Below are positions 48,792-51,350 of a DNA stretch of 64,000 bases, in pieces. The stretch is from the sequence record NC_005856.1; one strand, 5' to 3'. A program made the translations under genes and the position numbers. The first letter of the stretch is position 1, and each line of letters starts with the position of its first letter. Under the pieces are notes generated by a model, which saw nothing but the letters and a program-made list of their open reading frames with translations, was not told the DNA's origin and did no database searches. The DNA comes from Escherichia phage P1.

Positions 48792-49454
48792 ATGCTCGCC
48801 TGGAGGCTGAATTTGCAGCTGAGAATGAACATACCACCCAGGGCGACTAGGACTGTTTTTTGTGTCGGTAGCGGTCCGTCACTCACTCGTGAGGACTGTG
48901 CTGCTATAGAAAAAACTGGCTGTTCAATCATCGCGGTTAACAATTCCTGGCAGATGTTCGATGACATTTATGCCTTATACGCCGGTGATTTGTCATGGTG
49001 GAAGCAATACGGATCCACCATACCGGGAGGGAGATTCCGCAAAGTGACAGCCAACCTGGCGGCGGCGAAATCATTTTCGTTGGAGTACAGGCGATATTGT
49101 GGACCGGCGGAAGGGGTAAATAGCGGCGCGCAGGCTATCAGTCTGGCTGCTGAATCAGGGGCTGAAGTAGTGGTATTAGTCGGCTATGACTGTTCTCTGC
49201 AAAACGGCCTTCATTGGCATGGCGCGCACCCTCAAGCACTACGGAATCCAACGCAGGTGTCTATTTCAAAATGGCAACAGCAGTTCCTGGATACCCGCAA
49301 AAAACACGCAGATTTACATATTTTGAATGCAAGTAGGAGCAGTGCAATTCAATGTTTCCCAAGAATAAATTTAGAGGCAGTGATCGCGTTATTATCGTCG
49401 GCAGTGGCCCAAGCGCCGCAAACTTTGTTGCGCCGCGCGGAGTGCCGATTATAG
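48792..49454 (+). CDS. Maf/DUF115-like Rossmann protein (GSGPS motif)
   Basis: 220-aa ORF; VGSGPS...IAVN...NSG...VGYD pattern; paralog of next gene. Confidence 0.45.
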   Translation: MLAWRLNLQLRMNIPPRATRTVFCVGSGPSLTREDCAAIEKTGCSIIAVNNSWQMFDDIYALYAGDLSWWKQYGSTIPGGRFRKVTANLAAAKSFSLEYRRYCGPAEGVNSGAQAISLAAESGAEVVVLVGYDCSLQNGLHWHGAHPQALRNPTQVSISKWQQQFLDTRKKHADLHILNASRSSAIQCFPRINLEAVIALLSSAVAQAPQTLLRRAECRL

Positions 49455-49978
49455 CGGTCAATGGGGCCATCGACTGGCTTAACCGCGCTTCTTATTTTTT
49501 CACCCTTGATCCATCCCCAGACAATATGCGGCGCGTTGGTCGTGGCCGCCGTCGCCGTGGTGTTTGTTATTGCATGGCACTACCCGATGTTAAAGAACGT
49601 GAAGTCAGAGATGGCGTTCTGTGCTTCCGTCGTGTGGCTGAACGCGGCATGGAGCCAAAAAATACGAATTCTCCCGAGTGGTGGGCGTGGCGCTGGTCCG
49701 CACATTTCGGCCTTTGCGAAGATGAGAATGAAATTGCCAGCGGCAATAGTGCATATGGTGCTCTGAACCTGGCTTTCCATATCGGATTCAAACATGTAGC
49801 TCTGGTGGGCGTTGACGCTACGCAAGAACTACGCGTTCACTCCGGCGGCACGCCAAAAAATCTAAGTCACCTGCCTTTGTTATTCCAGTCTGCGCGTGAA
49901 CAGATTGACGTTGTTTCATGCGGGAAAATGGGAGGTATTCCGCAGATGACTCTTAAAGAATGGCTGAAGAATACATGA
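49352..49978 (+). CDS. Maf/DUF115-like paralog
   Basis: 208-aa ORF; IIVGSGPS...IAVNGA; 5' end overlaps previous ORF out of frame. Confidence 0.45.
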
Positions 49979-50652
49979 TAGCACCCACAATTTATCACCG
50001 TATCGACGGTACCAAATACAGGAATGTCTGGGTTGTTGGTGATCTGCATGGTTGCTACACCAGACTGATGTCCGAACTCCATCGTGTGGATTTTGACCCG
50101 GCGCAGGATTTACTGATATCGGTCGGCGACCTTATCGATCGCGGTACTGAAAATGTCGAATGTCTGGAACTATTGCAGATGCCCTGGTTCAGGGCAGTGA
50201 TGGGGAACCATGAGCGGTTGATGCTCGATGCGTTAAGTCCTGATGGCAACGTGAATAACTGGCTAATGAATGGCGGACAATGGTTCTTCATGCTGGACAC
50301 TGATCAGGAAATATTAGCCAGGGCGCTGGTGGAGCTGGTAAAGCGTCTGCCCTATATCATTGAGTTGAACACCGGGCAAGAAACTATCGTTATAGCCCAT
50401 GCCGACTATCCGGATAATGAATACCAATTCGGTAAGGAGGTGCCGCTTTTCAACGTTGTCTGGGCGCGCGAGCGTATCAGTGATTCGATGGATGATATTG
50501 GTGGCGAAATTTCGGGCGCAGATCGTTTTATCTTTGGTCACACTCCGGTGAAAAGCCCGAAGACATTCTGGAATCAGCAGTATATCGACACTGGTGCCGT
50601 ATTTTGCGGAAACCTGACATTGATGAAAGTGAAAGGTGATGGTGCAGCATGA
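49960..50652 (+). CDS. ppp: lambda-PP-like Ser/Thr protein phosphatase
   Basis: 230-aa ORF with GDLHG, GDLIDRG and GNHE metallophosphatase motifs. Confidence 0.85.
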
Positions 50653-51350
50653 AGATTGCTTTAGTTCTTCGCTCTGGTGGTGACTATAACGCTTCCGATG
50701 TGCAGTGGCTGGTTAATCAACTGCCAAAAGACTATGAAATTATTTGCCTGACAGACCTGAAGTGTTTACATGTACCTGGCGTCAAAGTTATCCCATTGAT
50801 CAACCAGTGGCAAAAGTGCCGTGGCTGGTGGGCGAAAATCGAGTTGTTCCGACCGGATATAACCGATGATCTGTTCTATCTGGATTTGGACACGGTTATT
50901 GCCGGTGATATACGCCCAATCCTTGAGAATCCACCAACCAGCTTCACCATGCTTAGGGATTTTTACCATCCACAATATCGTGGTAGCGGTGCCCTGTGGA
51001 TACCAAATAGTGTTAAAGCGCATATCTGGAGTTCATTCTGGCAAGATCCGGAAGGTTGGATTTCTCGTTGTGTCACTACTGAGTGCTGGGGTGACCAGGG
51101 GTTCTTACGAAAGGTTATGGGCGATGATACACCAGCATTTCAGGATCTGTATCCAGGATGGTTTGTAAGTTACAAGGCCGATGTTGTGGAACCTGGTTCA
51201 AAATATGCGAGCGCGCGTTACTCCAGGGGGAATGGGGCATTACCAAAAGACTGCCGAATAATCTTTTTCCACGGCAAACCGCGACCTCGCGAAGTGTCAG
51301 AGGATTGGCTTCCCCTTATCAGCTCATTTTTTGAGCGAGAATCAGAATAA
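50649..51350 (+). CDS. GT-A-like nucleotide-sugar transferase candidate
   Basis: 233-aa ORF; N-terminal Rossmann strand and DxD-like YLDLDTVI motif. Confidence 0.4.

Follow-up and report, generated by a model that had tools for sequence, protein, structure and literature searches.

A probable glycosylation cassette among the putative morphogenetic genes of Escherichia phage P1

Genes and control elements of the pmgO-pmgQ region

The region studied here belongs to a stretch of 64,000 nucleotides of Escherichia phage P1 (the window), which is 100% identical to record AF234173. The stretch flagged by the original prediction consists of four genes, pmgO-pmgP-ppp-pmgQ, and the separate gene assigned to the same group is dbn, 6 kb off; both sets of coordinates are exact. 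The relevant features are as follows.

41859-42857, plus strand: dbn, encoding Dbn (332 aa), a probable GT-B/GT4-type glycosyltransferase and probably a displaced member of the cassette
47695-47713, plus strand: late promoter LPpmgL, annotated in AF234173 (GenBank feature, L001 8096-8114)
48596-48622, plus strand: predicted sigma-70 promoter PpmgN (GenBank annotation, L001 8997-9023)
48635-48651, minus strand: C1 repressor operator Oppp, formerly Op83 (GenBank feature, L001 9036-9052)
48695-48850, plus strand: pmgN (GenBank CDS), a small ORF overlapping the annotated start of pmgO
48792-49454, plus strand: pmgO, 220 aa as annotated, a predicted Maf/GT42-like nucleotide-sugar transferase core
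49352-49978, plus strand: pmgP, 208 aa, a second predicted Maf/GT42-like transferase core and distant paralog of PmgO
49960-50652, plus strand: ppp, a lambda-type Mn-dependent Ser/Thr phosphatase, passenger in the variable slot of the cassette
50649-51350, plus strand: pmgQ, 233 aa, a predicted GT8-family glycosyltransferase (glycogenin-like, retaining GT-A)
51352-51368, plus strand: C1 operator OpmgRa and promoter PpmgR (GenBank feature, L001 11753-11769), start of the next unit (pmgR, pmgS)

As annotated, LPpmgL places the genes from pmgL to pmgQ under Lpa-dependent late transcription, and at its 3' end the pmgN-pmgQ unit is delimited by OpmgRa/PpmgR. The reverse complement of Oppp, GCACTAATTAATTTATT, presumably resembles the C1 operator consensus. 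A scan with promoter and terminator consensus sequences found nothing above chance inside the operon; annotated promoters, PpmgN included, were also missed by it.

Published knockouts and CRISPRi knock-downs agree that pmgO, pmgP, ppp, pmgQ and dbn are all dispensable, neither single deletion nor knock-down causing a plaque defect (PMC9024508; PMC10695390). The per-gene results are those of a table in PMC10695390, the genes being unnamed in the main text of Gonzales et al. For pmgN, essentiality was seen by CRISPRi and not by deletion (PMC10695390). The expectation that these genes are not purely structural is thereby upheld; a purely structural role was rejected on knockout and virion-proteome data.

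The genes are not free of previous annotation. Dbn was already called a "possible glycosyltransferase" in the 2004 GenBank record, and PHROGs and RefSeq label PmgO as "alpha-2,3-sialyltransferase" and PmgQ as "glycosyltransferase". Literature searches on pmgO/pmgP/pmgQ, hdmB/hdmC/hdmD, a glycosyltransferase in P1, and Kdo or capsid glycosylation in phages returned no functional study. The pathway had been called unrecognised, which is too strong with respect to these generic labels and appears appropriate with respect to the cassette and its context.

Predicted folds and active sites

PmgQ carries the DxD-like motif YLDLDTVI, named in the GT-A-like prediction, at residues 77-84 of its translation. 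In an alignment of 60 sequences D79-L80-D81 is invariant and matches the DxD of Gat1 and glycogenin in position; K63 and D149 are invariant as well, and G148, Q150 (of GDQG), H208, G209 and P211 nearly so. G148-D149-Q150-G151 aligns with GGDQG of glycogenin, and the C-terminal His-Gly-x-Pro (H208-G209-K-P211) with its HFLGxxKPW region (HFLGQTKPW), the register being shifted by one to two residues. Against PDB, the PmgQ profile finds Gat1 (6mw5, E 1.4e-8), glycogenin (about 3e-6) and GlyE (5gvv, 7e-5), and its hhalign comparison with E. coli WaaJ gives a probability of 82% (E 1e-5). As a single sequence PmgQ has no Pfam match at default thresholds, Glyco_transf_8 included. The DxD, the GDQG and the conserved Lys are common to PmgQ and GT8 enzymes (glycogenin, the Skp1 alpha-galactosyltransferase Gat1, streptococcal GlyE, WaaJ/WaaO); unlike known GT8 members, PmgQ is shorter (about 200-235 aa) and belongs to its own phage-borne family, PHROG 1962. 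Judged from DxD, GDQG and profile similarity, PmgQ is a GT8 (glycogenin-like) enzyme, and the original assignment holds.

PmgO and PmgP share the GSGPS motif (residues 26-30 and 17-21 of their translations) and had been taken for paralogs of the Maf/DUF115 type. Their family profiles align over the full length (hhalign probability 98.1%, E 7e-14, computed without the fusion protein P0051). Both match Pfam PF01973 (MptE-like/DUF115), PmgO with E 5.7e-5 and PmgP with E 3.4e-4, at scores (23.4 and 20.9 bits) under the gathering threshold of 34.6 bits; the threshold is passed by their relatives P0051, a PmgO-PmgP fusion (44.6 bits), and P0337 (44.1 bits), and PF01973 matches are precomputed for many close homologs. 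The predicted structures of both proteins superpose best on Maf and show the fold of the Maf/MptE catalytic domain, so that profiles and models bear out the proposed fold. Invariant residues D66/S111/D133 of PmgO and D53/S133/D155 of PmgP, with a Ser-to-Asp spacing of 22, follow the order of the catalytic D272/S334/D357 of Clostridium botulinum Maf (CbMaf; spacing 23), a correspondence by spacing and not by residue-level superposition. The reference residues of Magnetospirillum magneticum Maf are E324/D415.

PmgO and PmgP differ from the Maf flagellin nonulosonic-acid glycosyltransferases (Magnetospirillum Maf, PDB 5MU5) mainly in size, about 200 aa against about 630 aa. Only some 160 of their residues align to the 632-residue Maf, with 16-19% identity, and the large N- and C-terminal domains that flank the core in this multidomain enzyme of about 600 aa are missing. 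These domains presumably bind flagellin; that PmgO and PmgP lack them speaks for a glycan or lipid as acceptor and against direct recognition of a protein. Further, PmgO and PmgP, unlike Maf, form a paralogous pair or a fusion and have no flagellin connection: at the loci inspected no flagellar genes lie nearby, and all contexts are phage or prophage. Since pmgO and pmgP overlap, and some phages have them fused (P0051), we infer that the proteins probably act as a pair.

The only PDB matches of the PmgO and PmgP sequence profiles, both marginal, are the CMP-sialic acid transferases Cst-I and Cst-II, lipooligosaccharide sialyltransferases of Campylobacter jejuni (CAZy GT42). Cst-II relies on catalytic His188 and Tyr156/Tyr162, of which a clear counterpart could not be established in PmgO or PmgP. 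E. coli K-12 makes CMP-Kdo and not CMP-Neu5Ac, and since the laboratory hosts of P1 lack CMP-Neu5Ac, the label "alpha-2,3-sialyltransferase" is probably wrong if taken literally. By sequence, the links to Cst-II and to the E. coli Kdo III transferase WaaZ are weak (E 0.016-0.1). The faint match of PmgP to TIGR04437 (WaaZ_KDO_III; E 0.1) reaches 11.9 bits against a cut-off of 200, which leaves it outside the WaaZ family as defined by TIGR04437/PF27901, and P0051 has a faint precomputed match to Pfam WaaZ_KDO_III. Comparison with WaaZ by hhalign gives probabilities of 17.7% and 13.8% and E 1.4e-3 over the NSA..A..LG..I..G.D..C-terminal region, values that do not demonstrate homology. PmgO, PmgP and WaaZ are all basic (pI 9.3, 9.5 and 9.25). 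Such pI values do not discriminate between a membrane and a soluble site of action.

Dbn, originally described as GT-B-like, does contain the E-x7-E motif, HPESLGLTVLEAA. Its match to Pfam Glycos_transf_1 over residues 229-315, which include the motif, has E 1.5e-5 and 25.0 bits, below the gathering threshold of 26.4, and the same region (residues 223-315) is matched by three GT-B families. In PDB its only GT-B match is XcOGT at E 0.68, which makes Dbn the weakest case among the five genes. The motif is thus as predicted, and the GT-B likeness is weakly indicated by sequence.

The description of Ppp as a lambda-type Ser/Thr phosphatase proved correct. It matches the lambda phosphatase 1G5B with E 5.9e-95 over residues 11-229 and Pfam Metallophos with E 8.7e-16 (59.4 bits, gathering threshold 21.5), as expected of the lambda-type PPP family, and record AF234173 gives 64% identity to the lambda enzyme. 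The likeness to the Ser/Thr phosphatase of bacteriophage lambda (NinI) extends over the full length; Ppp differs only by its position inside a transferase cassette.

Distribution and context of the cassette

The genes for PmgP and PmgQ are adjacent in 62 of 68 diverse phage and prophage loci. Of the 18 loci from genomes or metagenomes 17 show this arrangement, the exception being a contig of 1.4 kb, and of the 50 diverse IMG/VR contigs 45 do. PmgO is encoded at 49 of the 68 loci (13 of 18 and 36 of 50, respectively), and in the 50 viral contigs the three genes lie on the same strand. The viral contigs were scanned with an alignment led by a distant member; a P1-led alignment gave only near-identical P1 clones. 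The family comprises about 580 clusters at 50% identity, in phages of very different bacteria. Host taxa include Gamma-, Beta- and Alphaproteobacteria, Bacteroidota and Gemmatimonadota, and all identified hosts are diderm.

Between PmgP and PmgQ lies a variable slot, which can hold a methyltransferase, a small GT-A or a Dbn homolog; Ppp takes this place in P1 only. Methyltransferases are frequent in the cassette, are of generic small-molecule or FkbM type (Methyltransf_11/23/25/21), and in P0350 and P0385 a SAM methyltransferase is fused to PmgP. Extended cassettes include a protein with weak similarity to Capsule_synth (KpsC/KpsS). Genes for sugar-nucleotide synthesis were not found among the recurrent neighbours. 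Homologs of Dbn keep the same company: all 20 phage records with Dbn also carry PmgP and PmgQ homologs, and phage EP_H11 has the order PmgO-PmgP-Dbn-PmgQ, with a Dbn homolog (48% identity) in the place that Ppp takes in P1.

The assumption of one glycosylation pathway is supported for the transferases, and its link to the distant dbn is backed by these comparisons; for the phosphatase it fails. None of the 50 diverse viral cassettes contains Ppp, and of the 18 genomic cassettes 17 lack it. In phage D6, ppp (90% nucleotide identity) is surrounded by lambdoid nin/ea-type genes, without the transferase cassette. To our knowledge, lambda carries no such cassette either. Because ppp accompanies the cassette only in P1-type elements and D6 has it alone, we place it outside the pathway: Ppp is a lambda-type phosphatase moron in the variable slot. 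That all five genes form one pathway, with Ppp dephosphorylating a sugar-phosphate intermediate or the acceptor, is hardly credible, in spite of the position of ppp between pmgP and pmgQ in P1-type elements, where stop/start overlaps measure 19 nt and 4 nt, and in spite of the preservation of this arrangement in a divergent Pantoea P1-like plasmid prophage (L087, 59% identity).

With respect to genomic surroundings, at least 22 of the 68 loci have head genes (TerL, portal, protease, major capsid protein) immediately upstream of the cassette, the typical order being major capsid protein, cassette, head-tail adaptor, neck and, further on, tape measure. Start and stop codons overlap between the cassette and the flanking structural genes, for example in L095 and L100. 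Usually the cassette belongs to a late virion-gene operon, typically directly behind the major capsid gene; its other positions are after lysis genes or the terminase gene. Some contexts fit a virion role badly: in contig L101 the cassette is surrounded by genes for DNA polymerase, exonuclease and RNR, and in chromosomal copies in Pseudescherichia and Serratia it stands beside or around inverse-autotransporter or Big_1 proteins. Capsid proteins encoded beside the cassette were inspected for C-terminal tails rich in Ser/Thr; they end in short S/G tails, which we consider uninformative since they resemble the ordinary HK97 capsid C-terminus.

Proposed pathway and its acceptor

We consider it rather probable that pmgO, pmgP and pmgQ constitute a mobile phage glycosylation cassette, with Dbn probably a further member acting in trans, and we suggest that the four proteins probably assemble a short glycan on a surface component of the phage or of its host. 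In this model, PmgO and PmgP would be minimal catalytic cores with the Maf/GT42-sialyltransferase fold, the typical donors of which are CMP-activated ulosonic acids; PmgQ would be a retaining hexosyltransferase with an intact DxD/GDQG/His active site, and Dbn a GT4-like GT-B enzyme. Since P1 has no sugar-nucleotide synthesis genes next to the cassette, the donors must be derived from the host, presumably CMP-Kdo for PmgO/PmgP and UDP-Glc or UDP-Gal for PmgQ and Dbn. The enzymes would be soluble and cytoplasmic, expressed in P1 upon C1 derepression and from the late promoter, and would assemble a short hetero-oligosaccharide on an acceptor reachable in the cytoplasm. In relatives carrying a methyltransferase, the glycan may be methylated.

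The original prediction named virion protein, DNA and a host envelope component as possible targets. As acceptor we tentatively favour a virion protein before or during assembly; the LPS core or another envelope glycolipid, its main rival, appears a less likely acceptor, and DNA is the least likely of the three. We know of no earlier virion glycosylation system described for phages of proteobacteria. The transferase genes of mycobacteriophages reportedly neighbour the capsid gene within the virion structural operon, a position that our cassette often has too. As far as later papers relate it, capsid and tail-tube subunits of mycobacteriophages are glycosylated by phage-encoded transferases (Freeman 2023, as cited in PMC12619734; PMC11256854), and from the same accounts the likeness to our cassette would include transferase genes dispensable for plaques and cytoplasmic enzymes using host donors. 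The hosts differ, being diderm here and actinobacterial there. Further, Maf enzymes in E. coli perform Ser/Thr O-glycosylation with Kdo from host CMP-Kdo (bioRxiv 10.1101/2020.06.03.131540). A more specific scheme would be dedicated virion O-glycosylation in P1 and several hundred phage lineages of Gram-negatives, in which the Maf-like pair uses CMP-Kdo, the GT8/GT4 enzymes extend the glycan, a methyltransferase, fused or encoded nearby, caps it by methylation in many phages, and capsid or tail proteins are decorated; in this full form the idea is speculative, and we regard it as unlikely.

Some observations touch on the virion itself. No glycan has been reported for P1 virions or for any other phage with the cassette, and the published virion LC-MS/MS (PMC9024508), which included no glycoproteomic search, is neutral in this respect. 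The P1 unit is controlled by C1 and could act early, and GT4, GT8 and the WaaZ-like hint belong to enterobacterial LPS-core families too; both points count against a virion glycan.

Remodelling of the LPS core or of an envelope glycolipid would take place at the cytoplasmic face of the inner membrane, for example by addition of an extra Kdo (like WaaZ) and hexoses. The families concerned indeed match those of core assembly, GT8 (WaaJ/WaaO), GT4 (WaaG/WaaB) and the Kdo transferase WaaZ, and the alignment of PmgQ with WaaJ, the faint WaaZ_KDO_III matches of PmgP and P0051, the Capsule_synth similarity in extended cassettes, the WaaZ-like basic character of PmgO and PmgP and the exclusively diderm hosts point in the same direction, as does the small, core-only build of the enzymes, which suggests glycan acceptors. 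A WaaZ-dependent third Kdo also accompanies outer-core truncation (PMC6358824). We nevertheless find such remodelling unlikely, and equally so its supposed consequence, an altered or masked LPS-core receptor used by P1, leading to superinfection exclusion or to less adsorption of progeny to debris. No link to WaaZ or KpsC reaches significance, PmgQ and Dbn, with a pI of 5.6, are acidic in contrast to the peripheral-membrane Waa enzymes, and the cassette is co-transcribed and translationally coupled with late genes for structure or lysis. C1 represses it in P1, which implies no expression in lysogens, when receptor conversion normally pays. K-12 shows no phenotype in two studies with LPS outside their scope (PMC9024508, PMC10695390).

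Glycosylation of phage DNA bases against restriction, as in T-even and 5hmC-glycan phages, is highly improbable. Restriction digestion and cloning of P1 DNA are routine. The hydroxymethyl-pyrimidine pathway needed by known systems is found neither in the annotated P1 region nor among recurrent cassette neighbours, the methyltransferases of the cassette gave no match to DNA-methyltransferase families, the dominant context is the head-tail structural operon, and antirestriction activity was unchanged in P1 single-gene knockouts (PMC9024508). These facts outweigh, in our opinion, the ability of phage GT-B enzymes to attach Kdo, heptose and other LPS sugars to 5hmC (bioRxiv 10.1101/2023.12.21.572611), the position of the L101 cassette between DNA polymerase/exonuclease and ribonucleotide reductase genes, and the methyltransferases often encoded alongside. 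PmgO and PmgP might instead belong to the MptE/thiamine-pyrophosphokinase branch and work as pyrophosphokinases or as other nucleotide-dependent enzymes, activating, for example, a small molecule for PmgQ. Their sole Pfam match is in fact to a family named after a kinase, but the top structural match of both is the glycosyltransferase Maf, their PDB profile matches are confined to Cst-I/Cst-II, their invariant residues match the CbMaf catalytic residues by spacing, and their obligate partners are other glycosyltransferases and sugar-type methyltransferases, so that we hold a kinase role to be improbable.

P1 is among the most used phages in genetics, a 70-year-old model, and about a third of its genes are without function. 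The label "morphogenetic", attached to this gene block since 2004, is misleading, and our analysis replaces a vague annotation by a hypothesis that can be tested directly with existing deletion mutants. Two likely database errors are corrected on the way, the literal "alpha-2,3-sialyltransferase" and the implication that the phosphatase takes part in the function of the operon. If the product is a virion glycan, glycosylation of phage virions would be extended from actinobacteriophages to phages of Gram-negative bacteria, with consequences for the stability and adsorption of phages and for their recognition by the immune system in therapy. The scheme with CMP-Kdo, if true, would represent a natural Ser/Thr-O-Kdo modification of proteins and explain a block of "putative morphogenetic" genes. 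If LPS is modified, the cassette would represent a new strategy of receptor remodelling in the lytic phase.

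The gene block in P1

The genes considered here lie in the window as follows.

48792-49454, pmgO
49352-49978, pmgP
49960-50652, ppp
50649-51350, pmgQ
41859-42857, dbn, a separate ORF directly downstream of ban

The window is bacteriophage P1; between 48600 and 51450 it matches AF234173 (P1 mod1902::IS5 c1-100) at 100% identity and other phages of the P1/P7 type at 98-99.8%. According to the GenBank record, pmgL, pmgM and pmgN precede the pmgO-pmgP-ppp-pmgQ block, and every pmg gene is labelled 'putative morphogenetic function'. The annotation places the late promoter LPpmgL upstream of the block, a predicted sigma-70 promoter ahead of it, adjoining the C1 repressor operator Oppp (former Op83), and right after pmgQ another C1 operator with a promoter (OpmgRa/PpmgR), which open the next unit.

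Some annotations in this part of the genome deserve revision. The annotated N-terminus of PmgO is probably overlong (48792-48850). PmgO homologs begin at about residue 17-20, the PHROG profile from residue 25, residues 1-16 have pLDDT below 50, and translation may instead begin at the in-frame ATG at 48825 (M12). PmgM (48050-48628) is a nuclease of VRR-NUC type, not a morphogenetic protein (Pfam VRR_NUC, E 3e-4; PHROG 'Holliday junction resolvase', E 5e-27). Pap (52987-53493) is similar to the phosphatase part of polynucleotide kinase-phosphatase (Pfam HAD_PNKP, E 5e-12; PHROG polynucleotide kinase). A role as an 'acid phosphatase' is less likely than one as a 3´-phosphatase acting on nucleic-acid ends. 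The only matches of PmgT (53688-54617) are to PHROG families without known function (phrog_874); its P7 counterpart is called 'DNA primase' in RefSeq, and the PHROG matches lend no support to either this or the morphogenetic label.

In the table of Piya et al. (PMC10695390), pmgO, pmgP, ppp, pmgQ and dbn are non-essential both by deletion and by CRISPRi. In the same work, pmgN (48695-48850) scores as essential when silenced by CRISPRi (efficiency of plating 1.4e-2) and is dispensable when deleted. Polarity does not account for this, since pmgO to pmgQ downstream are all non-essential. The CRISPRi target lies at least about 45 bp downstream of Oppp and of the promoter PpmgN. Gonzales et al. (PMC9024508) constructed 29 P1 single-gene knockouts. 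Our literature search found no functional study of pmgO, pmgP, ppp, pmgQ or dbn.

Enzyme types

The original prediction placed sugar-transferase-like genes and a phosphatase within a presumed morphogenesis operon, and all motifs it cited are present in the translations. The GSGPS motif of its two adjacent paralogs occupies residues 26-30 of PmgO and 17-21 of PmgP. By BLAST, these proteins share a 36-residue match only (E 0.003). Profiles of their families, derived from database homologs, can be aligned from end to end (hhalign probability 98.1%, E 7e-14), so by sequence comparison PmgO and PmgP are genuine but old paralogs. PmgP contains an insertion of about 35 residues. The two genes overlap by 103 nt in different frames (49352-49454); an overlap of about 97 nt persists in a P1-like element that has diverged, and in P0051, a homolog of PmgO, PmgO and PmgP are naturally fused.

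Structure comparison of PmgO and PmgP: two scores per matched protein, columns unlabelled
Maf glycosyltransferase, Magnetospirillum (5mu5): 14.0 and 13.4
Archaeal pyrophosphokinase MptE (8sd5): 10.9 and 12.5
Campylobacter sialyltransferase Cst-I (2p56): 10.6 and 10.6
SteA: 10.3 and 9.5
Thiamine pyrophosphokinases: about 7-10 and about 7-9
Mammalian GT29 sialyltransferases: about 7-9 and about 7-9

Since Maf 5mu5 ranks top, the Maf/DUF115 (MptE-like) type proposed for both paralogs is correct. The P1 proteins fall below the Pfam MptE-like threshold; other family members exceed it. Searched against PDB, the PmgP-family profile retrieves only the CMP-sialic acid transferases Cst-II and Cst-I (E 0.016-0.6), in matches that span the GxGPS...N and A..LG..I.L.G.D motifs; the PmgO-family profile finds them at E 0.14-0.7, among unrelated weak matches. 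In a 97-member alignment, G19, S21, N37, D53, R94, G131-N132-S133, G153 and D155 of PmgP are invariant or nearly so. Their equivalents in PmgO include D66, N110-S111-G112 and G131-Y-D133, accompanied by H141 and H143. In Clostridium botulinum Maf, mutagenesis showed D272, S334 and D357 to be needed, and the order and spacing Asp...Ser-(22)-Asp in PmgO and PmgP match these residues, a correspondence drawn from spacing and not from superposition.

PmgQ carries the YLDLDTVI stretch at residues 77-84. As a single sequence it has no Pfam match; a 60-sequence profile finds solved GT8 enzymes, namely Skp1 alpha-galactosyltransferase Gat1 (E 1.4e-8), glycogenins (about 3e-6) and streptococcal GlyE (7e-5), which bears out the expected GT-A-like protein with a DxD-like motif. 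The alignment with E. coli WaaJ reaches a probability of 82%. The DxD motif (D79, D81), GDQG (148-151), a C-terminal His-Gly-x-Pro and K63 are invariant or nearly so. PmgQ is a retaining GT-A enzyme of GT8 type whose active site appears intact. Ppp is, as anticipated, an ortholog of lambda phosphatase (1G5B, E 5.9e-95). Dbn contains the E-x7-E motif and scores 25.0 bits against Glycos_transf_1, the cut-off being 26.4; two further GT-B families match the same C-terminal region, so that its sequence marginally suggests a GT-B type.

Some of this was already visible in existing labels. Dbn is a 'possible glycosyltransferase' in the 2004 record, and PHROG and RefSeq call PmgO 'alpha-2,3-sialyltransferase' and PmgQ 'glycosyltransferase'. 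The pathway can therefore be called unrecognised only as a whole: individual genes had been labelled glycosyltransferases, while the pathway-level picture appears to be new.

A recurrent cassette and its companions

The PmgP family comprises 580 clusters in a library of 1.8 billion proteins (50% identity, E <= 1e-3), or 242 at E <= 1e-10. We sampled 18 diverse genome or assembly loci and 50 diverse viral contigs; both sets were searched with the P1 proteins, the viral contigs additionally with distant relatives. PHROG annotations were spread from four loci to the others by BLAST.

Genes found together with PmgP (genome/assembly loci; viral contigs)
PmgQ: 17/18, the exception being a 1.4-kb contig; 45/50
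PmgO: 13/18; 36/50
SAM-dependent methyltransferase: not scored; 25/50
Second small GT-A: not scored; 5/50
Ppp: 1/18, a P1-like Pantoea plasmid prophage; 0/50
Dbn: 1/18, locus L099; 0/50

The three cassette genes, pmgO, pmgP and pmgQ, are always on the same strand in the viral contigs, and all nameable hosts are diderm bacteria. What fills the slot between PmgP and PmgQ varies: a methyltransferase, a small GT-A or, exclusively in P1-type elements, Ppp. Methyltransferase domains are fused to some PmgP-family proteins, and extended cassettes also encode a further GT8-like protein, a methyltransferase and a protein weakly similar to KpsC/KpsS.

The phosphatase was wrongly included in the pathway, for its association with the cassette is confined to P1-type elements. 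Phage D6, a P1 relative, carries ppp (L154 4947-5639, 90% nucleotide identity) amid lambdoid ea/nin-like accessory genes; pmgO, pmgP and pmgQ are absent from the 10.6-kb stretch examined, and searches of the phage collection gave no PmgP, PmgQ or Dbn match in D6. Because ppp occurs there with no transferases nearby, it moves independently and is a moron that landed in the variable slot.

The suggested tie between dbn and the cluster is supported. Dbn homologs occur in only 20 of 50,697 cultured-phage records, all 20 within the 25 that encode PmgP. These records fall into three independent lineages: P1-like phages, EP_H11/IME392 of E. coli, and the jumbo phages CM1/RAS14 of Stenotrophomonas. 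The order in EP_H11 is PmgO-PmgP-Dbn-PmgQ, with Dbn (48% identity) in the variable slot, and in a Buttiauxella prophage a Dbn homolog lies 3 kb from PmgQ-PmgP. The PmgP homolog of EP_H11 is missing from the annotation, where its position between two CDS is left blank (L156 6031-6546; OP688485 ~42843-43358).

The genes most often found near the cassette encode portal (20 loci), head-tail adaptor (18), tape measure (17) and large terminase (16). At least 22 of the 68 loci have head genes directly upstream of it, and the gene order typically runs TerL-portal-protease-major capsid protein-[cassette]-adaptor-neck-tail terminator-...-tape measure. In loci L095 and L100, cassette coding regions overlap the flanking structural genes; the cassette there thus belongs to the late structural transcript and is not an autonomous moron. 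Elsewhere it follows lysis genes, as in a lambdoid Citrobacter phage (there before terminase) and others, or lies amid DNA-metabolism genes (one contig, L101). On Pseudescherichia and Serratia chromosomes, its genes are dispersed among or beside inverse-autotransporter or Big_1 proteins. These large surface proteins (L089-L093 in Pseudescherichia; L004 8001-10442 in Serratia plymuthica) include a 1166-aa inverse autotransporter (IAT_beta and seven Big_1), Big_1/RCC1 proteins and two Big_1 proteins of ~296 aa, and could be protein acceptors of the transferases in these bacteria.

Proposed pathway and its target

The set consists of paralogous, overlapping and sometimes fused Maf/GT42-like cores, a GT8 enzyme nearly always alongside, frequent methyltransferases and a GT4-like enzyme; it is co-transcribed late with virion genes and is dispensable. 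No signal peptides or membrane segments are evident on reading the cassette protein sequences, and no genes for sugar-nucleotide synthesis lie near the cassette. On these grounds, we suggest a cytoplasmic assembly line which would draw on nucleotide sugars of the host and make a short glycan; in many relatives this glycan would be methylated. The most plausible donor for the Maf-like pair is CMP-Kdo, the one CMP-activated ulosonic acid known to be common to all these diderm hosts. In E. coli, Maf enzymes were found to transfer Kdo from it onto Ser/Thr (bioRxiv 10.1101/2020.06.03.131540). PmgO and PmgP might be pyrophosphokinases instead of transferases. The fold alone is compatible with this, but sequence matches and gene company speak against it and we disfavour it.

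As the acceptor of the glycan we favour a virion protein, because the cassette recurs just behind the capsid gene and is tightly coupled to structural genes, and because mycobacteriophages offer a precedent. The main rival is remodelling of the LPS core. The enzymes belong to families like those used in core assembly, faint similarities point to WaaZ and KpsC, and the core is bound by P1 itself; expression during lytic growth only, however, fits receptor conversion poorly. Glycosylation of DNA is unlikely, given that no hydroxymethyl-pyrimidine pathway is seen in the annotated P1 region or among the recurrent neighbours of the cassette, that P1 knockouts show no antirestriction change (PMC9024508) and that the accompanying methyltransferases are of small-molecule or FkbM type.

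The original observation thus holds, and the non-structural role and the enzyme types predicted with it are right. What appears to be new is a mobile, conserved cassette of a Maf-like pair and a GT8 enzyme, with optional methyltransferase or GT4, inserted in late operons. Many phages that infect Gram-negative bacteria, among them P1, carry it there, and its product and target are readily testable.
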